DNA from: a virus
Taxonomy: Duplodnaviria > Caudoviricetes
Length of the DNA: 64,000 nucleotides
Virus record (IMG/VR): IMGVR_UViG_3300037470_000126
Coordinates: 18,369-82,368 of that record
Reading direction: 5' to 3' (one strand)
Both the position numbers and the translations under genes were made by a program. The notes beneath the pieces were generated by a model. It was not told the DNA's origin. It ran no database searches and saw only the letters and a list, made by a program, of their open reading frames with translations. Each line of letters begins with the position of its first letter. The first letter of the stretch is position 1. This document shows, one piece after another, positions 4,967 through 15,528 of this stretch.

Positions 4967-5001
4967 AGCCCCGTCTCCTCGATCACTCAAGGAGCGGGGC
5001 T
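4967..5001. terminator. Hairpin between convergent genes
   Basis: AGCCCCG...CGGGGCT inverted repeat. Confidence 0.6.
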
Positions 5002-5025
5002 CTCTGCTGTCTGCTGGTGTGGAAC

Positions 5026-5286
5026 TTAGACTCCCATCATGCCGGGGTCGTGGTTGTGGTGCCAGTCCATCGGGTCGAGTTCGTGAGCCAGAGCGAGGTG
5101 ACCCGCAGCCAGCTCCTTGTCGTGGAGACCCATCATCACCTTGTCGGCAGCCTCGTTCATCAGGTCACGGATGCACTGGGGGCACAGCGGGTCATCCTCG
5201 ACGCTGTCCGGCGCGATAACCTCAACCCGACCGCAACGGGTGCACGGGACAGTGTTGGTGAGCTGGGCGTGAAGGTCGTCGGTCAT
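5026..5286 (-). CDS. Small CxxC...CxxC zinc-binding protein
   Basis: CTRC and CPQC motifs, AAGGAG RBS, own promoter. Confidence 0.75.
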   Translation of the reverse strand: MTDDLHAQLTNTVPCTRCGRVEVIAPDSVEDDPLCPQCIRDLMNEAADKVMMGLHDKELAAGHLALAHELDPMDWHHNHDPGMMGV

Positions 5287-5321
5287 GGCGGTGAGCTCCT
5301 TTGCTCTCGACTACACGGACG

Positions 5322-5350
5322 ACGTTACGCCTGTCGTCGGAACGTGTCAA
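5322..5350 (-). promoter_or_regulatory. Sigma70-type promoter
   Basis: TTGACA-17-TAACGT. Confidence 0.75.
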
Positions 5351-5402
5351 GCGCTGAGACCGAGGCGCTGTATGCCCGCCTAAGCGACTGACCCCCGCCG
5401 AG

Positions 5403-5416
5403 GATACCCGGGTATC
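5403..5416. repeat. CCGGGTATCC box, palindromic variant GATACCCGGGTATC
   Basis: Related copies near 7141, 8188, 9607, 10209, 11869 and 12609. Confidence 0.8.
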
Positions 5417-5633
5417 TACGGGCCAGCTAGCGGCGCTTAGAAGCGAAAAGCTCTGTGCGCTCCTCTCGGCGCCTCTCAGACGCTCGCCGAAGAGAGACAC
5501 GCGCGACGTACTGAGAGCTCCTTAGAAGCGCGTACAGGCGCCCTAACGCACGTATTGCGCGCTCTCGATCGCTCACACTCGCAGACATGCGAAAAGGCGC
5601 CCCTCTCGGGACGCCCTCTCTAATCGGGTCGAG

Positions 5634-7019
5634 TCACTCCGCGGCGGGCAGTTCGTCAACGATGGCGCAGCGGGTGAGCTGGGTGGACTTCATGCCCTCC
5701 CACTCCTTGTGCGCCTTCACGGAACCCTTGATCACGTAGCGGGCGCCGATCTCCTCGCCCAGGGTGTCGTTCGAGGCGAACCACTTAACGACGTTGCCCT
5801 CCTCTGTGATCATGGTGTAGAGGGTGGTGCTGCCGTAGTCGCTGTCCAGGTACTTGATGGCCTTGATTTCAACGGTCAGCGTCTCGCGGCTGCCCTTCAC
5901 ACCCGCTGCCTTGTCAGGCGCGGTACCGATGAACTCAGAGGCGGCGTACACGCTGGCCTCACGCTCACGGATCAACGTGCGCTCCAGGTGCTTGGCCCAA
6001 GCCTGCGGGGCAGAGGCGAGGAGGCCGATGTTGCGAGCGGAGACCATCTTGCCTGCGGCAACAGCCTTCATGTTCAGGACGTAGTCAGACGAGCCGGAGA
6101 AGTCGTCGGACAGGATGAACGCGAGAAGCTGGGCAGCCTTGTCGGCAGCCTCGTCGGCAAGCGGGGCGATCTTCGCGGCCCACTCGCGGTCGTGCTTGCT
6201 CTTGCTCGGCGAGAGGGCGGTCATAACGTCGCCCTTCGTGGTGTTGCCGTAAGAGCTGGCGGGCTTGAACCCTTCAAGCTTCACGCAGGCCCAGGCAACG
6301 GCGAGGACGGTCAGCGGGTTGTACTCACGCTCACCGGCTCCCCCGAAGAACGAACCCTCCTCGTCGTCGTCTCCGGACAGCTCGGGGAAGGCAATGGTCG
6401 TGTACTGCCCGGTGAAGTCCTTCAGGCAAGAGCTACCGACCTGGAGCATCTCGCCGGACTCCTGGTTGCGTACGACGTAGGTCACGAGGCGCTGGCGCGT
6501 AGTGCGGCAGTGGTCGCACCAGCCTTCGGTCACGGAGTCGCGGTTCACGCCCTCGACACCCGGGACGGAGCGCACGATCAGGCCAGCGTTCGCGTCCCAA
6601 TCAAGCTTGGCGATGAACTCCCACCCGTTGTACGCGGGGGCGTTGCCGGTGATCTCGACCTTGTACTCGGTCCAGGTCTCGGTGATCTTGGTGAGTTCGT
6701 TGGTCTCGGTGACCTCGACCTCTTCGACGCTCATGGACAGCGTGCCGGCGAGGCCCTTACGCTCGGCGCGGGCGTTGATCTTGTTCAGCTTCTCCTGGGT
6801 GGCGAGGAGCTGGAAGTGGTCGATGCGAGCGCTCATGGCGATCTCGCGGACGGTCACGTCGGTGACAGCCTGGATGGTGTGGGACGGGGTGACGGGCGTC
6901 TGGATCTCGGTGGCGAGCGGCTTAACAACGGGAGCGGAGACACCCTTCGCGGCGGCCTTGCGGCACGCGGCACGCGCGCTCTTGGTCTTCGGGTGGGTGC
7001 AGTTCGCGTGGGCGCTCAT
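5634..7019 (-). CDS. 461-aa hypothetical protein with N-terminal HCHC module, CxxC zinc motif and OB-like C-terminus
   Basis: HANCTHPKTKSARAACR at N-terminus; CDHC...SSCL; GAGGAG RBS; own promoter. Confidence 0.85.
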   Translation of the reverse strand: MSAHANCTHPKTKSARAACRKAAAKGVSAPVVKPLATEIQTPVTPSHTIQAVTDVTVREIAMSARIDHFQLLATQEKLNKINARAERKGLAGTLSMSVEEVEVTETNELTKITETWTEYKVEITGNAPAYNGWEFIAKLDWDANAGLIVRSVPGVEGVNRDSVTEGWCDHCRTTRQRLVTYVVRNQESGEMLQVGSSCLKDFTGQYTTIAFPELSGDDDEEGSFFGGAGEREYNPLTVLAVAWACVKLEGFKPASSYGNTTKGDVMTALSPSKSKHDREWAAKIAPLADEAADKAAQLLAFILSDDFSGSSDYVLNMKAVAAGKMVSARNIGLLASAPQAWAKHLERTLIREREASVYAASEFIGTAPDKAAGVKGSRETLTVEIKAIKYLDSDYGSTTLYTMITEEGNVVKWFASNDTLGEEIGARYVIKGSVKAHKEWEGMKSTQLTRCAIVDELPAAE

Positions 7020-7057
7020 GTCGGGCTCCTCGTCTCGTCGTGTTCTCTCTTGAGAGA

Positions 7058-7086
7058 AGCTTACCAAGTGAAACCGCACGATGCAA
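7058..7086 (-). promoter_or_regulatory. Sigma70-type promoter
   Basis: TTGCAT-17-TAAGCT. Confidence 0.7.
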
Positions 7087-7198
7087 GGCGGGAGCGAAAG
7101 TCGTGTGCGCCCATCTCACGGCGCTATCCGTGCCCGAGGAATGCCGGGTATCCGCCCCTCCCGATCAAGCGTCACACGCCCGTACAGAGCCTTGGGCC

Positions 7199-7210
7199 GT
7201 ACCACACCCA
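7199..7210 (+). repeat. GTACCACACCCA 12-mer
   Basis: Exact copies at 19360 (minus strand), 31812, 38605 and 63861. Confidence 0.8.
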
Positions 7211-7287
7211 ACGTGTGTGCCGGCAAGCTAGCCCGTCCACGAGAAAGGGCCCCGTAGGGCCCCTCTCTGCTACTCTCTCGCCCCCTC

Positions 7288-7719
7288 TCAGTCGGCGAGG
7301 CGGATGTTCCCCGTCAGGTAGTCGCTGGACGAGTACAGCGCGCGCTGGACGGCGCTCTCGGCGTTGGGGTCGATCTGGAAGGCGATGCGCCACAGGCGCT
7401 TGCCGGGCTGGCTCTTGCTGTCCTGGACATAGTCAAGCTGGCCGGTGATCTCGCGGAGGACAACACCCTCGGGCAGACGGTGGTCGTCGTACTTGGCCCA
7501 CCCGGTGACCTTCGTGCCGGCTCGCATCGCAGCGGACAGCTCCTCGTCGGTCAGGGGGGTGAAGCCGGCGATGGTGCTACGGATCTTGCGGCAGTTGGCA
7601 CGGGCCTTCTTCGTGCTCTGGTGGTCACACGCGGCGTGCGAGGTGCCGGCCTTCAGGTACTGCGAGAGGGTCAGGGGGGTCTCGGTGACGGTGGTCTCGG
7701 GGGCGGTGTTCTCAGTCAT
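7288..7719 (-). CDS. Hypothetical protein with HCHC module
   Basis: HAACDHQSTKKARANCR; GAGGAG RBS. Confidence 0.85.
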   Translation of the reverse strand: MTENTAPETTVTETPLTLSQYLKAGTSHAACDHQSTKKARANCRKIRSTIAGFTPLTDEELSAAMRAGTKVTGWAKYDDHRLPEGVVLREITGQLDYVQDSKSQPGKRLWRIAFQIDPNAESAVQRALYSSSDYLTGNIRLAD

Positions 7720-7748
7720 TGTGTGCTCCTCGTGTTGTCGTTGGCACG

Positions 7749-7777
7749 ACTCTAGCATGCCCGTGGCGGTCGTCCAA
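7749..7777 (-). promoter_or_regulatory. Sigma70-type promoter
   Basis: TTGGAC-17-TAGAGT. Confidence 0.65.
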
Positions 7778-7786
7778 GGGGTGAAT

Positions 7787-8101
7787 TCAGGGGCGCATGT
7801 CGTCGGCGAGGATCTCCCACTCGCCCATCAGGCGGGCGGTCTCGTGGACGAGACGAACGGCGAGGGCAGGGTTCCAGTCGGCGAGGCGGTACCCGTGCTC
7901 CTGGGCGACCTCGTCAAGGGTGATGCGGTGGATCATGTTCACGCAACCCTCGGCGCGGGCACGACGGACGAACACGAAGGTGTGGTTAACGATCGTGGCG
8001 GTGGTCTCCTTCACACGCTCACGCCGGCAAGCGGAGCGGGCGGCCTTCGTGGCCTCGTGCTGGCAGCGGCTGTGGTCGGTGGTCTTGCGTGTCGTCGTCA
8101 T
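7787..8101 (-). CDS. Hypothetical protein with HCHC module (probably leaderless)
   Basis: HSRCQHEATKAARSACR; ATG 7 nt after the -10. Confidence 0.85.
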   Translation of the reverse strand: MTTTRKTTDHSRCQHEATKAARSACRRERVKETTATIVNHTFVFVRRARAEGCVNMIHRITLDEVAQEHGYRLADWNPALAVRLVHETARLMGEWEILADDMRP

Positions 8102-8107
8102 GTGACG

Positions 8108-8137
8108 ACCATACACCCTGCCGGCGGTCCCGCGCAA
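8108..8137 (-). promoter_or_regulatory. Sigma70-type promoter
   Basis: TTGCGC-18-TATGGT. Confidence 0.6.
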
Positions 8138-8280
8138 GGGGAGCCCAGAGGCCGTGTGTGCCCGTCTAACGATGGCAGCGGCACGGAGGTATGCCGGGTA
8201 TCCTCTGTCCCGCGTCGGCTCTCAGAAGCCGGCTCAGCCACCGAGAAACCCGCTTGCGCGGGTTCTCTGCTGGGTGCGGC

Positions 8281-8538
8281 TCAGTGGCGGACAGCGGCGA
8301 TGATCTCTTCCACGTCCTTCGTGTTGTCGTAGTACCCTTCGATCAGGGCGGAGTCAATGGCTCCCAGACCGAAGATGATCTCATCGGCGTCGGCGCTGTT
8401 GTCGTAGTACGAGGCGACGAGGGCGGCGATCTTCGTGGCGGTCTCAGTGGCACGAGCCTTGCGAGCGGCGCGGCACTTGGCGCGGGCGGTCTTGGTAGCG
8501 GGGTGGAGGCAGTCGCTGTGGTTCGTGTTCGTCTTCAT
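8281..8538 (-). CDS. Hypothetical protein with HCHC module (probably leaderless)
   Basis: HSDCLHPATKTARAKCR; ATG 7 nt after the -10. Confidence 0.85.
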   Translation of the reverse strand: MKTNTNHSDCLHPATKTARAKCRAARKARATETATKIAALVASYYDNSADADEIIFGLGAIDSALIEGYYDNTKDVEEIIAAVRH

Positions 8539-8544
8539 GTGAGA

Positions 8545-8574
8545 ACAGTACCACGGCCCCACCGGCGAGTGCAA
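8545..8574 (-). promoter_or_regulatory. Sigma70-type promoter
   Basis: TTGCAC-18-TACTGT. Confidence 0.65.
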
Positions 8575-8642
8575 GGGCACAACGCGAGAAAGGGCCTCTC
8601 CCCTTTCGAGAAAGACCCTCGCTCTTATGTGGATTCAGGCTG

Positions 8643-9008
8643 TCAGGCCTCGACAGTCTCCGCGTAGGTGCAGGAGATGGTGGTGCGCTTGGTCTTGCCC
8701 TCGTCGTTCACGTAGTTGATCCACTGCTTACCCCACCCGGAGATCTTGACGCCGGTGGCGACCTCGGACTCCTCGTCGTCGGTCAGGCGAACAGCGATGC
8801 GGACGGGGGTCTCGCGGAACTCCCTCCAGTTCTCAGCGGTAACGCGCACCGGCTCGAACACGGGGGCGGGAGTCTCGATGGTGGTAACACCCTCGGCGGC
8901 AACGGTGGAGAGCATGTCGGCGAACTTGGCGCGGCTCCGACGGCACTGGGCACGGGCGGCCTTCGTGCTGACGTGCTCGCAGTTCGCGTGGCTCTGGATC
9001 TTGGACAT
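8643..9008 (-). CDS. Hypothetical protein with HCHC module
   Basis: HANCEHVSTKAARAQCR; C-terminal domain similar to 11326..11715. Confidence 0.85.
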   Translation of the reverse strand: MSKIQSHANCEHVSTKAARAQCRRSRAKFADMLSTVAAEGVTTIETPAPVFEPVRVTAENWREFRETPVRIAVRLTDDEESEVATGVKISGWGKQWINYVNDEGKTKRTTISCTYAETVEA

Positions 9009-9049
9009 TCTGTGCTCCTCGGTTCGTGTCGTTCTTGCTTACAGGGATA

Positions 9050-9078
9050 ACACTACGCACTCAGCGCCGGGCCGTCAA
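9050..9078 (-). promoter_or_regulatory. Sigma70-type promoter
   Basis: TTGACG-17-TAGTGT. Confidence 0.75.
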
Positions 9079-9208
9079 GGCCAGCTCACGGTTTCTTTCA
9101 AGATTCTTTAGGTTGCCACAATCCCTGCTACAGAAAGGCTCTGTGCGCTCGCCAGTGAGCCGGCACCCTCTCCCCGGAGGTACCGGCTCGGCTGACCCTG
9201 CTAAGCGC

Positions 9209-9463
9209 TTACGCGCCGGCGTGAGGGTTGAGAAGGCGCTCCATGAGCCGGTTGGTCAGCTCACGCGCCACCTCCTGCTCGGTGACGGCGTAGACACGAG
9301 ACGCGGCAGCGTGGAGCTCCGCTACGTCCCACACCTCCCCGAACTTCTGATCCATCGTGGCGTCGGAGAACTCCTTGACCACTGCCGTCATCGGCTCGTG
9401 GATCAAGGGGACCAGCTCGGTGATCAGTTCATCTAGGCGGCGGGATTGATCGGCAGAGAACAT
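9209..9463 (-). CDS. Hypothetical helical protein
   Basis: AAGGGAG RBS and own promoter. Confidence 0.75.
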   Translation of the reverse strand: MFSADQSRRLDELITELVPLIHEPMTAVVKEFSDATMDQKFGEVWDVAELHAAASRVYAVTEQEVARELTNRLMERLLNPHAGA

Positions 9464-9501
9464 GGCACACTCCCTTGTGTACGTTCGGTTCCTACTCGAC
9501 T

Positions 9502-9530
9502 ACAGTACCGCGGTGAGAGACAGATCACAA
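9502..9530 (-). promoter_or_regulatory. Sigma70-type promoter
   Basis: TTGTGA-17-TACTGT. Confidence 0.55.
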
Positions 9531-9751
9531 GGGGGCGCACAGGGGGCGCACGGAGCACGAGGGGCGCACGCACACACGGCCGTCTGACGGCCTCAGTGTC
9601 CGCGGTGGGTACCCGGCATACCTCCGCCTCGTTCAGGCTCTCAGAAGCCCGTACAGGCTTGATCGGCAGATCTCAATATGGCAACGTTGCCAGCTCCCAA
9701 ACGAGGAAGCCCCTCCCTCTTTCGAGGTCGGGGCCTTCCCTAACAGTTTGG

Positions 9752-10060
9752 TTACTCGGCGGCGCGGGCCTTGCGGCAGATCGCGCGGTCCTTCTTGGTC
9801 TTCGGGTGCTTGCACGCTGCGTGGCTGGTGTGGGACTTGGCGATCCCGTTGGAGTGACCCTTCGCCGGCGGCGTGGTCTCAGGGTCGGGGGCACCCTGGC
9901 AGATCAGGCAGTCATCCTGGGCACCCTCGGTCTCGTGGCTCTCGTCACTGTGGGTGTTCTCGTGACCCTGGTAGTCGTAGCAGGCTTCGCAGATGTTGCC
10001 CTCAAGCAGGTCGGAGGAGACGGGGCGGAAGGTGCAGTAGGTGCAAAGCTTGCGAGCCAT
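9752..10060 (-). CDS. Cys/His-rich protein with C-terminal HCHC module
   Basis: CTYC, CEAC and CLIC motifs; ends HAACKHPKTKKDRAICRKARAAE. Confidence 0.85.
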   Translation of the reverse strand: MARKLCTYCTFRPVSSDLLEGNICEACYDYQGHENTHSDESHETEGAQDDCLICQGAPDPETTPPAKGHSNGIAKSHTSHAACKHPKTKKDRAICRKARAAE

Positions 10061-10106
10061 TTGGATCACTCTCTCTGGTTGGTGTTGCTCTGTGCTGATA
10101 GATAGA

Positions 10107-10135
10107 ACATTACACGGGTCCAGTGGCTAGCGCAA
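10107..10135 (-). promoter_or_regulatory. Sigma70-type promoter
   Basis: TTGCGC-17-TAATGT. Confidence 0.65.
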
Positions 10136-10315
10136 GGCCTGGCAACGTTGTCATTGAAAAAATCTTGAGGAGGCCTGTACGGCGATCTGACGCCGGCAGC
10201 CTCTCGCCGGTATGCCGGGTATCCGGCGGCACCGCTGGGCTCTTAGGCGGGCTCTCAGAGCCTCGCTCATGCGAGTGCCCCCGCCCTCTCACGAGGACGG
10301 AGGCTCTCTGATCGG

Positions 10316-10711
10316 TCAGGCGTTACGCTGGCGACGGCACGCGGCTCGTGCGCTCTTGGTCGCGGCGTGATCACACTCGGCGTGAGCGCCACGCACACCC
10401 ACGACCTTCATCTCCTTGACGACAGGTGCGGCAGCGGCCTTCTTGGCGGTCTTCTTCGCAGCCGGCGACGCCTTGTCCAGAGCCTCCGTGCAGCGGCTCT
10501 CGGGGTGGATCTGACGCTGGCGGGCGTCAAGCTCCCAGCCTCCCGTGATCTCGAAGCCACAGAGGCCACAGAGGGGGTTGCAGCGGTAGCAACGGCCGTT
10601 CTCGTCAACCTCGCACACGGTGTCGAGGCAACAAGTGGTCTCGCCGTCCTCGTCGGTCTCGGGGTCGATGGTCTGGCAGGTGGTGCAGTGCTTGGACATC
10701 GGGTCGAACAT
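10316..10711 (-). CDS. Cys-rich protein with C-terminal HCHC module
   Basis: Several CxxC motifs; ends HAECDHAATKSARAACRRQRNA. Confidence 0.85.
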   Translation of the reverse strand: MFDPMSKHCTTCQTIDPETDEDGETTCCLDTVCEVDENGRCYRCNPLCGLCGFEITGGWELDARQRQIHPESRCTEALDKASPAAKKTAKKAAAAPVVKEMKVVGVRGAHAECDHAATKSARAACRRQRNA

Positions 10712-10750
10712 CTGAGGCTCCTTGCTCGCTCGGTCTTGCTTACGAGTAGA

Positions 10751-10779
10751 ACACTACGGCATACGTGGGACCGTGTCAA
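10751..10779 (-). promoter_or_regulatory. Sigma70-type promoter
   Basis: TTGACA-17-TAGTGT. Confidence 0.8.
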
Positions 10780-10870
10780 GGACGTGAGCGAGAATCTTCC
10801 ACACAAGCCTGTGACGTCCGAAAACCCCGTCTCACTAGTGAGAGCGGGGTTCTCTGCCAGGGTCAATATG

Positions 10871-11008
10871 TCAGTATGAGCAGTTCTCGCAGGTCCCGTC
10901 CTCCTCCAGGTGCGTCTCACAGGTCGAGCAGAAGTGGATCTCATCGCGGCAGATCTCGATCGGGCAGCCGACCAGACCCTCAAGTGACATTTCGATCTCG
11001 AAGTCCAT
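10871..11008 (-). CDS. 45-aa acidic zinc-ribbon-like protein (not in the ORF track)
   Basis: MDFEIEMSLEGLVGCPIEICRDEIHFCSTCETHLEEDGTCENCSY; AAGGGAG RBS and own promoter. Confidence 0.75.
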   Translation of the reverse strand: MDFEIEMSLEGLVGCPIEICRDEIHFCSTCETHLEEDGTCENCSY

Positions 11009-11049
11009 TGTCTTCTCCCTTGTTTCGCTCTCTCTTGCTTACATGGACT

Positions 11050-11078
11050 ACTTTACGCGACTGACCCGGGGCCGTCAA
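11050..11078 (-). promoter_or_regulatory. Sigma70-type promoter
   Basis: TTGACG-17-TAAAGT. Confidence 0.75.
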
Positions 11079-11325
11079 GGCAGATCAGTGGTTTTCTTCA
11101 AGATTCTTTTGGAAGCTCTGTGTGCCCGTCTAAGCGCCTGTCAGACACTCGCCGGCAGTCTCGTACGCTCACGCGCTCTCGTGCTCTCACATCGCCGTCT
11201 AGGACGTCTCAGGCGCGTCTCTAGGGCTCTCGCACTCACGACACGCAGACTTGTGCCGGCTCAGACATGCGAAAGCCCGAGAGACTGTCTTAGCTCTCTC
11301 GGGCTCTCTAATCGTGCTGGGCAGT

Positions 11326-11715
11326 TCAGTTGGTCAGGCGGACGCTGTCCTCCTCGATCAGGTCGGCAACGGGGCGACGGACGGTCTTGCCGTCCTCGTT
11401 CTTGAACTGGATGTTCCGCTCGCTCCAGCCGGTCAGCTCGGTGGCGATCACGTCGCCGTCGGTGAAGCGGAGCGTAACGCCGCGGCCCTTGTACTCCTTC
11501 CAGTTCTCGCGGTGCAGGACGAGGGCGTTGACGGAGATGTGAACGCGGTGCGGAGCCGGCATGAGCATCTTCGGGCCGTTCATCGCAGCCTCAACGGCGG
11601 CAAGAATCGGGTTGGCGATCTCGACGGTGGTCGCCTTCTTCATTGCGCGGCGGCAGGCAGCGCGGGCAACCTTGGTGGAGGGGTGCTGGCAGGCGGCGTG
11701 AGAGAAGCGGGCCAT
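11326..11715 (-). CDS. Hypothetical protein with HCHC module
   Basis: HAACQHPSTKVARAACR; GAAGGA RBS. Confidence 0.85.
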   Translation of the reverse strand: MARFSHAACQHPSTKVARAACRRAMKKATTVEIANPILAAVEAAMNGPKMLMPAPHRVHISVNALVLHRENWKEYKGRGVTLRFTDGDVIATELTGWSERNIQFKNEDGKTVRRPVADLIEEDSVRLTN

Positions 11716-11765
11716 TTGGATCATTCCTTCGGTTGGTGTTGCGCTCTGTTGTGCTGACATGGATA

Positions 11766-11794
11766 ACACTACGGCACTCCGCGTGCTCCGTCAA
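11766..11794 (-). promoter_or_regulatory. Sigma70-type promoter
   Basis: TTGACG-17-TAGTGT. Confidence 0.75.
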
Positions 11795-11980
11795 GGCGAG
11801 AACGAGGTTTTCTCCAAGATCTTTTAGAAACCTCTCTGTGGCCTTCTAAGCGCCTCAGCCCGTGCCTCGGTATGCCGGGTATCCTCTGTCCCGCGTCGTC
11901 CGCGAGAGAGCCGCACAGGGCCTCGTTCCATACGAGTGCCCTCACCCTCTTTCGAGGGCAAGGGCTCTCTTCTCTCAGTC

Positions 11981-12160
11981 TCAGAAGATCCAGTTCCAGA
12001 TCTTGACGTGCACGGACTTGATCATGTCCCAGACGACGGAGAACACGGCGGCAACCCCGTCAAACCCGAGAATGGTGATCGTGGTCAGGATAACGGCGAT
12101 CACGAGAATGATCATCGCACCCGAGAACCCGTCTGTGTCGCGCTGGGGGTGGTTCATCAT
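11981..12160 (-). CDS. 59-aa membrane protein (not in the ORF track)
   Basis: MMNHPQRDTDGFSGAMIILVIAVILTTITILGF...WNWIF; hydrophobic segment; own promoter. Confidence 0.7.
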   Translation of the reverse strand: MMNHPQRDTDGFSGAMIILVIAVILTTITILGFDGVAAVFSVVWDMIKSVHVKIWNWIF

Positions 12161-12199
12161 CAGAGACTCCCTGCCTCGTTGTTTCTTGCTTACGAAGTA

Positions 12200-12229
12200 A
12201 GCTTACCACGCGCCCCGCGCTACATGCAA
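12200..12229 (-). promoter_or_regulatory. Sigma70-type promoter
   Basis: TTGCAT-18-TAAGCT. Confidence 0.65.
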
Positions 12230-12277
12230 GGGCGAGAGCTGAATTTCTCAACTCTCGCCCTCGCTCACGTCATCGGA

Positions 12278-12490
12278 TCACTGGTGCTTGGTCGGCGTGA
12301 TCTTCGCGTCGGGGTGCTCACGCTTGATCTCGTCGGCGCTCACGGCGCTGTACGTCTGGAGAGTGACAGGCTTGCCGCTCTCGTCCTTGTACGTCACGAC
12401 GTGCGTGGGACGGTCGATGGACGGCGTACGATCGCTGCCGCTCTCGTCACCCTCGCTCTTGCGTCCCTTGATCTTGTCCCAGAGTCCCAT
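12278..12490 (-). CDS. Hypothetical protein
   Basis: MGLWDKIKG N-terminus, GAGGGA RBS, own promoter. Confidence 0.75.
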   Translation of the reverse strand: MGLWDKIKGRKSEGDESGSDRTPSIDRPTHVVTYKDESGKPVTLQTYSAVSADEIKREHPDAKITPTKHQ

Positions 12491-12526
12491 TAGATCCCTC
12501 TCGTCGTTGTTCTTGCTTACGGAGTA

Positions 12527-12555
12527 AGCTTACCACTCTGCTCCGCGTCATGCAA
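12527..12555 (-). promoter_or_regulatory. Sigma70-type promoter
   Basis: TTGCAT-17-TAAGCT. Confidence 0.7.
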
Positions 12556-12691
12556 GGTGGCACGCCGATGAATCCTACGCGGATCTGAGAGCCGCTAGCT
12601 AGCCGCACTATACCCGGGTATCCGTCGTCCGTCATCGGCTCGCACACGGGCACACAGAGCCTCGTCCATACGAGGAGGCCCCCGCTCGAAG

Positions 12692-12712
12692 CCGCAAATG
12701 GGGGCCTATAAT
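12692..12712 (+). promoter_or_regulatory. Class-2 promoter CCGCAAA-N8-TATAAT
   Basis: Same box and spacing; ATG follows at 12720. Confidence 0.65.
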
Positions 12713-12719
12713 AGATCTC

Positions 12720-13061
12720 ATGCCCATTGGTGTGCCATGTACTAATCCTGACCATCATCGGAAAAGCAAAAGAGGGAGGTGCCTTGACTGTAGGTATCTA
12801 CGCATGAAGCCGCGCAATCACTACGGGGACTATGTCAAGGGTGCCAAGTGTGAAGTATGCGGTTCAACCGAGAACTTGGGCGTGGATCACGATCACTCGT
12901 GCTGCCCCCGTAACGGACGCTCCCGGTCTTGCGGTGAGTGTGTGAGGGGGACACTATGCCAGAGCTGTAACATGGCTCTGACCTATGATGTCACCCCGGA
13001 GATCCTGAGAGCACTAGCGGACTATCTGGAGAAATACGAGAGCGGCACTACTCCCGAGTAG
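12720..13061 (+). CDS. Endonuclease VII-like (His-Me finger) nuclease
   Basis: CEVC...VDHDH..C...VRGTLCQSCNMAL. Confidence 0.88.
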   Translation: MPIGVPCTNPDHHRKSKRGRCLDCRYLRMKPRNHYGDYVKGAKCEVCGSTENLGVDHDHSCCPRNGRSRSCGECVRGTLCQSCNMALTYDVTPEILRALADYLEKYESGTTPE

Positions 13062-13067
13062 TGCCGC
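13042..13067. terminator. Perfect 11-bp hairpin between convergent genes
   Basis: GCGGCACTACT-CCCG-AGTAGTGCCGC. Confidence 0.65.
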
Positions 13068-13089
13068 CCCCTCTTCTTGCCGGCTTCGC

Positions 13090-13341
13090 TTAGCCCTTGT
13101 TGTTGATCTTCTTCATGTGGTCGAGGATCGTGTTGGTGATCAAGGTCTCGGCGGCGTTGTAGATCTTGAGGGCGTCGTGGCTGTCGTGATCTTCCACACC
13201 CTTCTCGTCGCAACGCGCGATGGCGATGGCATCCGCGTAGTCGGCGATCTCGGCGGAGATGGCGTCGATCATCTGATGGGCGATGGCTTCGAGGTTCGCC
13301 TCCTTCATGATGTTGTGGATCTTGAGCTGCATGGCGTCCAT
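13090..13341 (-). CDS. Hypothetical helical protein
   Basis: GGGGAG RBS, own promoter. Confidence 0.75.
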   Translation of the reverse strand: MDAMQLKIHNIMKEANLEAIAHQMIDAISAEIADYADAIAIARCDEKGVEDHDSHDALKIYNAAETLITNTILDHMKKINNKG

Positions 13342-13383
13342 CGTGCTCTCCCCTCAGGCCCGTCTCTCGGGCTCACGTCTACG

Positions 13384-13412
13384 ACTATACACGGTGCCGG
13401 CTCTCGTGACAA
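13384..13412 (-). promoter_or_regulatory. Sigma70-type promoter
   Basis: TTGTCA-17-TATAGT. Confidence 0.7.
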
Positions 13413-13480
13413 GGACGCGCCGGCTCAACCGCCGAGAGAGGGAGTCTCGTGATGCTGTGAGACTCCCTCTCTCTACTCAG

Positions 13481-13765
13481 TCACCCAAGATCGCCGGCGT
13501 TGTACGTAGGCTCTTCGCCGGTCTCGTGGACGTGAAGCTCTTCCGCGTATGCAGCTTCGAGCTTGTCAAGGATCATGCGAAAGATCACGAGTTCAGCGCC
13601 TCGCTTAGCCTTCGGGTCCTTGATGTCAGCAGTAACCTTCTCTGCCTCTCGCTCGATGAAGTTCTCCGCGATGCTTGCCGCACCTTCAGCGCCGATCACG
13701 TTGATCATGTGATCGAAAGCCTGTCGCGCTTCATCCGTCGTGAGCCTGTTAATGCTCTCGCTCAT
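13481..13765 (-). CDS. Hypothetical helical protein
   Basis: GAGGGA RBS, own promoter. Confidence 0.75.
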   Translation of the reverse strand: MSESINRLTTDEARQAFDHMINVIGAEGAASIAENFIEREAEKVTADIKDPKAKRGAELVIFRMILDKLEAAYAEELHVHETGEEPTYNAGDLG

Positions 13766-13833
13766 GTGACTTCCCTCTGTTGAGTTAACAATCGCCTTGC
13801 TCTGTGAGCCGGTCTCGCTTGCTCACGAGAAGA

Positions 13834-13862
13834 ACACTAGCCGGCTACAGCCGGCTTGTCAA
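13834..13862 (-). promoter_or_regulatory. Sigma70-type promoter with palindromic spacer
   Basis: TTGACA-17-TAGTGT; spacer region AGCCGGCT-GT-AGCCGGCT. Confidence 0.8.
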
Positions 13863-14060
13863 CACGTTCACGAGAGAAGTTGAGAAAGCTCTGTGCGTAC
13901 GTCTGAAGCTCTCTCGCGTCGCTCTCGTCTCTCAGCACGTACGCGCTCTGTGAAGCGCTCACAGACGCTCTCACACGCGCTCTCGCGTCGCTCTGCTGTC
14001 TCTGCTCTGTGTCGAGAACGCGCACGTCAGAGCACGTCTCAAAAGATCTTGAAACTTTTC
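13854..14060. other. 207-bp tract with no CC or GG dinucleotide, between divergent promoters
   Basis: Read base by base; last GG is 13853-13854, next CC is 14060-14061. Confidence 0.9.
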
Positions 14061-14072
14061 CTCGCTACTTCC

Positions 14073-14101
14073 TTGCATCGTAGCGAGGAAGCGCGTAGTG
14101 T
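14073..14101 (+). promoter_or_regulatory. Sigma70-type promoter
   Basis: TTGCAT-17-TAGTGT. Confidence 0.75.
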
Positions 14102-14213
14102 CTTACTCAGCAGCACAGAACGACGCAAGACACGCAAGACAGTACAACTGATCTTTGACAACTCAACAGAGTGTGAATCGCAAGAAACGACACACAACAA
14201 CAGGAGTCAGACA

Positions 14214-14474
14214 ATGACGACTAAGCGTTTCTCTCACGCGAACTGTGCTCACGCTTCCTCGAAGGTAGCGCGTGCGAAGTGCCGGCGTGATCGTGCGAAG
14301 TTCGCTCAGATCCTCTCAGACGAGATCTTGAACCACGAGATCGAGACTCAGGAGATCATCCCGAACCCGATCATGGATGAAGTGAGCGCCATGATCAACG
14401 GCCCGAAGATGCTGGAGATGGGCAAGAAGGGTCGGGACACGCTTCGCAAGCGTGCCGCGCGTGCCAAGAAGTAA
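14214..14474 (+). CDS. Hypothetical protein with HCHC module (inverted cassette)
   Basis: HANCAHASSKVARAKCR; AGGAG RBS. Confidence 0.85.
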   Translation: MTTKRFSHANCAHASSKVARAKCRRDRAKFAQILSDEILNHEIETQEIIPNPIMDEVSAMINGPKMLEMGKKGRDTLRKRAARAKK

Positions 14475-14484
14475 CTAGTAGAGA

Positions 14485-14514
14485 AGCCCTGAGAGCTAAC
14501 ACAGTCTCAGGGCT
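14485..14514 (+). terminator. Terminator hairpin homologous to 11274..11305
   Basis: AGCCCTGAGA...TCTCAGGGCT. Confidence 0.65.
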
Positions 14515-14674
14515 TCTCGGCGTTCTCTGACGCTCTCGCGTATGCGACTCGACACAGAGCACACGAGACGCGCGTTAGGCGATTACACGCGCTCTCAGGA
14601 GCTCTCACATACGTAAGAGAGCGAGAGACATACACGCTCTGTCTCTCGCTCCCTATCACGCGCTCACGTCATTC

Positions 14675-14944
14675 TCAGACGTTGATACCCGGGATCCCGC
14701 TCCAGTGCTCGCTCTCGATGCCGACGGCACTCGGGTCTACTTGCCAGTAACCCTCGCAGCCGATCACCACGACCAGCTCACCCCGGGCAGCGTCGAACAG
14801 GATCCAGTGATCGGCAGCGCCGAAGTCTTCCCCGATCACTCCCTCGCACTCCGTGCACTTCGTGGTGGTCAGGATCTCGTTCGTCCCGCTCTTGAGCGCG
14901 TCATCCACCACGCTCAAGTAAATGAGTGTACGGGCGTCTCCCAT
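14675..14944 (-). CDS. Hypothetical protein with CxxC motif
   Basis: CTEC...H...CEG; GAGGGAG RBS; own promoter. Confidence 0.75.
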   Translation of the reverse strand: MGDARTLIYLSVVDDALKSGTNEILTTTKCTECEGVIGEDFGAADHWILFDAARGELVVVIGCEGYWQVDPSAVGIESEHWSGIPGINV

Positions 14945-15439: not shown

Positions 15440-15454
15440 TGGGGAACCAACGCG

Positions 15455-15528
15455 TACCCACGGAGGGATTTGAACCCCCAACCTTTCGGACCTAAACCGA
15501 ACGCCTCTCCCAATTGGGCTACGCGGGC
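15455..15528 (-). tRNA. tRNA-Leu(UAG) with short variable loop
   Basis: Acceptor GCCCGCG/CGTGGGT, anticodon arm TTCGG-TTTAGGT-CCGAA, T arm GGGGG-TTCAAAT-CCCTC, discriminator A. Confidence 0.9.

Follow-up and report, generated by a model that had tools for sequence, protein, structure and literature searches.

A recurrent H-C-H-C module of about 25 residues in nine proteins of a Zukovirus-like Streptomyces phage

Nine proteins (p1 to p9), encoded between positions 5634 and 14474 of a 64,000-nt stretch of viral DNA, carry the same short module, H-x2-C-x-H-x9-C, at or near one of their ends. This stretch, the window, comprises bases 18369-82368 of the 82,368-bp virus record IMGVR_UViG_3300037470_000126, and the genome, 82 kb long, is that of a Zukovirus-like Streptomyces phage. 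All nine copies represent a single autonomous mini-domain that spans about 25 residues and is probably a tether to nucleic acid. The more specific reading, that of a tether clasped by a metal ion such as zinc and resembling the NUMOD add-ons of nucleases, was given a probability of roughly 45%.

Recurrence, exchange and distribution of the module

The window was scanned in all six frames with the regular expression H..C.H...K..R..CR and its looser form H..C.H.{9}C. The strict pattern returned exactly nine matches, eight on the minus strand (6960-11700) and one on the plus strand (14235-14285), and these are the nine copies of the original prediction, which had been made from the letters alone (9/9). 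In 30 shuffles of the window the strict pattern was matched 0 times and the loose form 0.1 times on average. No further copies were found across the entire 82,368-bp record. Among the nine aligned copies the H, C, H, K, R, C, and R columns are invariant. The predicted invariance of H1, C4, H6, K10, R13, C16, and R17 thus holds for the window, but K10 varies outside this phage lineage.

Synonymous codons vary at the conserved residues (TGC/TGT; CGT/CGC/CGA/CGG; ACC/ACG; GCN), and the DNA flanking the nine copies is unrelated. The repeat is therefore held at the protein level and not as a DNA element, and, as the varied codons show, it is on the protein that selection acts.

The nearest records were the Streptomyces phages KimJongPhill and Zuko (genus Zukovirus), with about 78-79% identity over parts of the region, where all of their genes are annotated as "hypothetical protein". 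KimJongPhill carries ten module copies, in gp88-96 and gp98. Its gp91 (L009, 8483-8836) is a chimera in which the module joins a p2-like leader to a p3-like body. Residues 7-22 of gp91 have 94% identity to the pre-module leader of p2, which places a recombination joint at the module. For the bodies of the tagged (module-carrying) gp89, gp90, and gp92 there is no match among the nine window proteins, while the bodies of p2 and p9 had no counterpart in the KimJongPhill array. As read from these comparisons, the module is swapped between protein bodies.

A profile built from the nine copies was searched against 1.84 billion representative proteins (E-value <= 1e-3) and matched 515 protein clusters, 150 of which were listed and are described here. 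The exact H-2-C-1-H-9-C spacing was kept in 150 of the 150 listed matches, with the module N-terminal in 89, C-terminal in 43, and internal in 18. Six of the listed proteins carry 2-4 modules in tandem, spaced about 20-35 residues from one another. The consensus of 240 distinct copies reads [TS]-[SA]-H-[AS]-x-C-x-H-x-x-[TS]-K-x-A-R-A-x-C-R-[RK]-x-R, and the mean net charge of the module is +4.4 per 25 residues. Three of the database matches (P0015, P0051, and P0060) end in the peptides MRISDWSSDVCSSDL and RSEEHTSELQSLMR, which also turn up in unrelated entries and have the look of assembly artefacts, leaving the ends of these three proteins untrustworthy.

As a strict DNA pattern the module was found in 19 stretches on 12 IMG/VR contigs and at 10 loci in a set of 185,579 species genomes of bacteria and archaea, where less than one match is expected by chance according to our own estimate. 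All 10 loci belong to actinomycetes, namely Streptomyces, Frankia, Nocardiopsis, and Pseudonocardia. With tblastn the module was detected in 101 phage records, 94 of them from Gordonia phages, followed by Streptomyces (4), Mycobacterium (2), and Nocardia (1). At least three phage lineages carry it. Seven modules lie within 5 kb (48.8-53.5 kb) of a complete 58,905-bp IMG/VR contig (L024, G001), and a 59.8-kb viral contig has ten, nine of them within 6 kb. Both of these contigs of about 60 kb are unrelated to the window phage, and their modules are again clustered. In the Gordonia phage RanchParmCat, three consecutive genes each start with the module. Pro replaces K10 (T-P for T-K at positions 9-10) in five of the seven modules of L024; of the five modules read in the two Gordonia phages MAnor and RanchParmCat (L010, L041), four show the same replacement.

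Predicted structure and relation to known families

AlphaFold2 models were calculated for p5, where the module is N-terminal, and p6, where it is C-terminal, using 90 and 44 aligned sequences, respectively, and with no metal included. The predicted local distance difference test (pLDDT) of the module was 80-94 across the two models. The p5 model (mean pLDDT 85) consists of a coil (1-15), a helix (16-39), a linker, and a barrel (55-118), while in the p6 model the module reached a pLDDT of 90-94 and its helix begins at the conserved K. Both models run as a coil through H1, C4, H6, and T9 and as a helix from K10 onwards, with the last Cys on the basic helix. The minimal HCHC loop plus basic helix guessed beforehand is thus the arrangement on which the two models agree. 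On a helical wheel, A12 and C16 would occupy one face, expected to turn toward the loop and the metal, and K10, R13, R17, and R20 would line another, with T9 placed to cap the helix.

Structure comparisons brought few matches. For the p5 model, the only Foldseek matches in the PDB were weak ones between its C-terminal barrel and SH3-like or RimP-like structures (E-value >= 0.02). A wide VIA-align search with the p6 model reached Z-scores of 3.2 at most, to generic small zinc fingers, and covered its N-terminal part alone. ESM Atlas gave no usable feature match on the module. A homodimer model of p5 residues 1-45 with two zinc ions scored 0.01 in a run without controls, a value that weighs in neither direction.

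Over the module, neither Pfam nor NCBIfam gave a match in the nine proteins, Pfam gave none in the 150 listed proteins, and a profile search of the PDB sequences gave none up to an E-value of 10. All nine proteins were matched by PHROG 18656 and/or PHROG 1342, both of unknown function (E-values 7e-14 to 8e-3). These matches are limited to the module and the first flanking residues, about 25-45 residues of profiles with 153-208 positions. The sequence of the module is thus already in public clustering, but within whole-protein clusters that have no function, name, or domain definition. The statement that the module belongs to no named family stands for Pfam, NCBIfam, and the PDB sequences and has to be qualified for the two PHROGs. 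Where database names of carriers were given, they were "hypothetical protein", without Pfam domains in two further searches. In the literature on the motif, HCHC fingers, Zukovirus, and the Gordonia phage SprT-like protease, no description of the module was found.

Several known families were considered and rejected. DUF7298 (PF23972) matched p4 only, with 12.6-15.6 bits against a gathering score of 27, and the other eight modules not at all. Phage_zn_bind_8 (PF24623) is likewise a small Cys-based phage zinc module with putative DNA binding, and it co-occurs with the module in 5 of the 150 listed proteins (P0037, P0041, P0078, P0094, and P0119). There its match spans the N-terminal residues from about 5 to 70 and the module lies elsewhere, either C-terminal or internal and not covered; none of the nine window proteins (0/9) was matched.

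The retroviral-type CCHC zinc knuckle, which binds nucleic acid, resembles the module in its length of about 17 residues, its four Cys/His ligands, its basic context, and its often terminal or tandem placement. Unlike in the knuckle (zf-CCHC, C-x2-C-x4-H-x4-C), the last ligand of the module sits on a long alpha-helix, and ligand order and spacing differ: H-x2-C-x-H-x9-C was found in 9/9 window copies and in 150/150 listed matches, with no Pfam match. With NUMODs the module shares the habit of a short portable add-on, single or in tandem, joined by linkers to HNH-type and other nucleases and also present on other proteins. In contrast to NUMODs, which are helix-turn-helix-like or other non-metal motifs, it has a fixed H-C-H-C set, and most of its carriers are not nucleases. 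NUMOD1, NUMOD3, and NUMOD4 gave no profile match in Pfam scans of the nine proteins, the 150 matches, and the HNH_3 fusions.

The closest analogue with a solved structure was ZnF2 of the P1 protein of rice yellow mottle virus (RYMV), an HCHC-type finger that binds zinc weakly and is redox-sensitive; its loop supplies three of the ligands and a helix the fourth, and its exposed surface is basic (bioRxiv 10.1101/2020.02.24.963488). Its topology is reversed relative to the module, with His109 on an N-terminal helix and Cys140, His145, and Cys149 in the loop, and its spacing is different. As a finger of a plant RNA virus without sequence relation to the module, it is an analogue and not a relative.

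Partner domains and possible function

In the favoured mechanism, H1, C4, and H6 of the short loop would clasp one metal ion, most likely zinc, and C16, on the second turn of the alpha-helix, would complete the clasp as the fourth ligand. K10, R13, R17, and R20 would form a continuous exposed basic stripe. Flexible linkers would join the module to either end of unrelated effector domains, and a changing set of accessory proteins would thereby be recruited to nucleic acid, probably to the DNA of the host nucleoid or of the phage. In this respect the module would resemble the NUMODs and zinc knuckles that homing endonucleases carry as appendages. A nucleic-acid tether was favoured because of the census of partner domains, the tandem arrays, in which nucleic-acid-binding fingers are commonly arranged, the basic stripe, and the likeness to homing-endonuclease add-ons.

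Judged by domain assignment, all recognisable partners of known function act on or bind nucleic acid. They include HNH_3 homing-type endonucleases, also in the form (module-HNH_3)x2, and in several proteins a module precedes each HNH_3 unit; such fusions occur in bacterial genomes. A carrier with an endonuclease VII domain has four modules. SprT-like metalloproteases carry the module in many Gordonia phages and in the Mycobacterium phage NoShow, and their genes lie in the replication region. Other partners were Rho_N/SAP helix-extension-helix domains, Phage_zn_bind_8, and DUF2786. Partner domain and module occupy different residues in every case checked. The occurrence on so many unrelated proteins and known domains bears out the description of the module as a portable, terminal tag. 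That description had named DNA/RNA, RNA polymerase, the nucleoid, and capsid loading as possible targets; the partner domains favour DNA/RNA, while capsid loading fits poorly with the C-terminal positions, the tandem arrays, and the nucleases of bacterial genomes.

A number of points weigh against a metal-clasped tether to DNA. Zinc binding, the four ligands, nucleic acid as the target, and the time of expression are all inferred. Zinc sites of a purely structural role seldom show so strict a choice between His and Cys at each ligand position. About 130 of the 150 listed carriers have no recognisable domain, so that the partner census rests on a minority, and as HNH, Rho_N/SAP, and Phage_zn_bind_8 domains bind DNA already, a tag of other purpose would fit them equally. 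The confinement to phages and prophage-like loci of actinomycetes is better explained by a protein target specific to this host clade than by DNA. Finally, the change of K10 to Pro is concerted and is also seen on orthologues that have Lys elsewhere, as would be predicted from co-evolution with one shared partner; module exchange within a genome can account for it too.

These points lead to the first alternative, in which the folded module is a docking tag for one protein hub, conserved in actinobacteria or phage-encoded, and delivers the effectors to the same machine. RNA polymerase or a sigma factor, the sliding clamp, the single-stranded DNA-binding protein, and a chaperone or protease would be candidate hubs. 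Terminal, linker-attached, and portable placement suits such a tag, as do the spread confined to phages of actinomycetes and the lineage-wide switch from K10 to P, including the orthologues mentioned above. K10, R13, and R17, which would face away from A12 and C16, are strictly conserved in this lineage. SprT-family proteases (Spartan/Wss1) are recruited via short hub-binding tags, which also counts for a hub. However, tandem arrays of 2-4 modules would be atypical for a docking tag, and so would homing-type endonucleases in which every HNH_3 unit is preceded by a module. That the module stays within one gene pool may be a matter of gene flow and not of its target. A protein hub was regarded as possible, with the odds clearly on the unfavourable side.

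Held just as tentatively was the view that the module is an address label shared by several actinophage lineages, by which up to ten unrelated, fast-changing early effectors are sent to one host target. This target would be either one particular protein hub or a defined structure within the nucleoid, and the labels would evolve in concert with it, as in the K10-to-P switch.

An arginine-rich peptide that binds RNA was considered improbable. Here the metal-clasped basic helix would recognise structured RNA, for instance hairpins in leaders or terminators of the phage, much as lambda N does. The helix T-K-x-A-R-x-x-C-R-R-x-R-A-K resembles arginine-rich motifs, known from the lambda N and Rev peptides, some carriers are fused to Rho_N-like domains, and a strong hairpin ends every cassette of the array. 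Most identified partners (HNH_3, endonuclease VII, SprT-like) are nevertheless DNA enzymes, and no conserved RNA element was linked to the tag.

Quite improbable, too, is a module that bridges two chains through the metal or acts as a redox- or metal-sensitive switch controlling the effectors. The strict H-C-H-C identity in all 150 listed matches would suit either role, and the weak, redox-sensitive zinc site of RYMV P1 offers a parallel (bioRxiv 10.1101/2020.02.24.963488). Against it, the monomer model folds the loop back confidently onto its own helix, and combinatorial pairing of nine or ten unrelated effectors would have no evident logic.

A virion-loading signal for co-injection was judged very unlikely. 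The likeness to the capsid-targeting sequence of T4 internal proteins, one short terminal sequence shared by several unrelated small phage proteins, is all that supports it. The T4 signal is strictly N-terminal, cleaved, and found on virion proteins. The present tag was rejected as a member of this type, since among the listed matches it is also C-terminal (43/150), internal (18), and tandem (6) and since it occurs on nucleases and a protease, among them HNH endonucleases in bacterial genomes and the SprT-like protease of the replication region. No protease-site-like feature follows the tag, and the promoter-terminator cassettes stand away from structural genes.

A DNA or RNA element or recombination joint that merely happens to be translated, or chance, can practically be dismissed: the joint in gp91 indicates that the shared sequence may double as a site of shuffling, but the shuffled windows gave no strict match, codons vary synonymously, flanks are unrelated, and the same peptide occurs across Streptomyces, Gordonia, and Mycobacterium phages with different DNA.

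Nothing yet points to a new kind of mechanism. The module represents a small domain family that is new but of a familiar class, and of the predicted undescribed system the undescribed family is retained, while the class to which it belongs, that of modular metal-binding add-ons, is a known one. Most small early genes of actinobacteriophages are orphans; here, up to ten of them in one genome bear a compact module that is easy to recognise and has no description in the curated domain libraries, and the labelling of many unrelated cassette genes of one phage is a notable habit. If the module were a zinc-held tether to DNA or to a hub, a single binding experiment would reveal where the whole orphan class acts, the tag would be a search handle for accessory and host-takeover genes, and a targeting peptide of 25 residues could serve Streptomyces engineering. 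If the address label were true, identifying its target would show at once where many orphan early genes act, and the tag would mark host-takeover genes of actinophages. An ordinary, non-specific DNA clasp would be a new domain family of modest interest.

Tagged genes and their surroundings

The genes of the nine carriers are listed in Table 1, with starts picked from upstream signals; for p2 these were a promoter-like box and GAGGAG.

Table 1. Module-carrying genes of the window, with positions counted from the first base of the window
Protein	Length (aa)	Gene	Strand	Module	Module residues	Other features
p1	461	5634..7019	-	6960-7010	4-20	
p2	143	7288..7719	-	7588-7638	28-44	
p3	104	7787..8101	-	8024-8074	10-26	
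p4	85	8281..8538	-	8470-8520	7-23	
p5	121	8643..9008	-	8940-8990	7-23	Module followed by long helix and SH3-like beta-barrel
p6	102-105	9752..10069	-	9773-9823	83-99 of 105 (C-terminal)	Cys/His-rich N-terminal domain
p7	131	10316..10711	-	10334-10384	110-126 of 131 (C-terminal)	Cys-rich N-terminal part
p8	129	11326..11715	-	11650-11700	6-22	C-terminal domain also in p5
p9	86	14214..14474	+	14235-14285	8-24	Sole plus-strand copy

The first His of the module is residue 4-10 of six proteins and residue 28 of p2, and the module is C-terminal in p6 and p7. Open reading frames and module positions thus agree with the predicted placement (seven near the N-terminus, two C-terminal) and with carrier sizes of 85-461 amino acids. 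When the module was masked, BLASTP among the nine carriers found significant similarity in two pairs only: p5 and p8 have a common C-terminal domain (E-value 3e-7), and p8 and p9 a common stretch of 19 residues (E-value 1e-4). The claim that the carriers mostly share nothing else is accordingly true of most of them, but not of these two pairs.

The remainder of p1 matches PHROG 2319, which is of unknown function (E-value 1e-65), and p1 has 75% identity to KimJongPhill gp88. Only the pre-module leader of p2 recurs in KimJongPhill, in gp91, which also matches the body of p3. The body of p4, with its YYDNS...EEI repeats, matches KimJongPhill gp93 and the database matches P0085 and P0146. Homologues of p7 are P0051 and KimJongPhill gp96, p8 has 74% identity to P0004, and P0012 is a homologue of p9. 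The N-terminal domain of p6 follows the pattern C-x2-C ... C-x2-C-[YF]-D-x-x-G-x-E-N-x-H-x-D-x-x-H ... C-x2-C, which had no Pfam match. It is kept in P0115, P0121, P0132, P0102, P0122, and P0117, and the tag follows it there and in the IMG/VR homologues read.

The flanks of the tagged genes were read directly (window 5000-14600), and a generic scan for sigma-70 promoters and terminators was uninformative on this high-GC DNA. Each tagged gene has its own upstream TTGAC-like and TAGTGT-like boxes, a Shine-Dalgarno sequence or leaderless start, and a GC-rich hairpin downstream. This fits independent cassettes that would be transcribed by the host polymerase, and early expression is plausible because host-type promoter-like boxes and hairpins surround each gene. 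In p3 and p4 a -10-like box sits 7 nt before the ATG; on account of this spacing the p3 transcript is probably leaderless, and p4 is probably leaderless as well.

The sequence GGATACCCGGCAT occurs in four exact copies on the minus strand (window 7141-7153, 8191-8203, 10212-10224, and 11872-11884) and in two variants with 1-2 mismatches (9607-9619 and 14683-14695). All six copies sit between cassettes of the array, and none of 100 shuffles reached six matches; the sequence may be an operator-like box. An untagged endonuclease VII gene (window 12720-13061, plus strand; Pfam E-value 6e-11) lies on the opposite strand within the minus-strand array and looks like an inserted homing-type nuclease. 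The sole tRNA of the window, a tRNA-Leu with the anticodon TAG (15454-15528, minus strand), is located just past the array.

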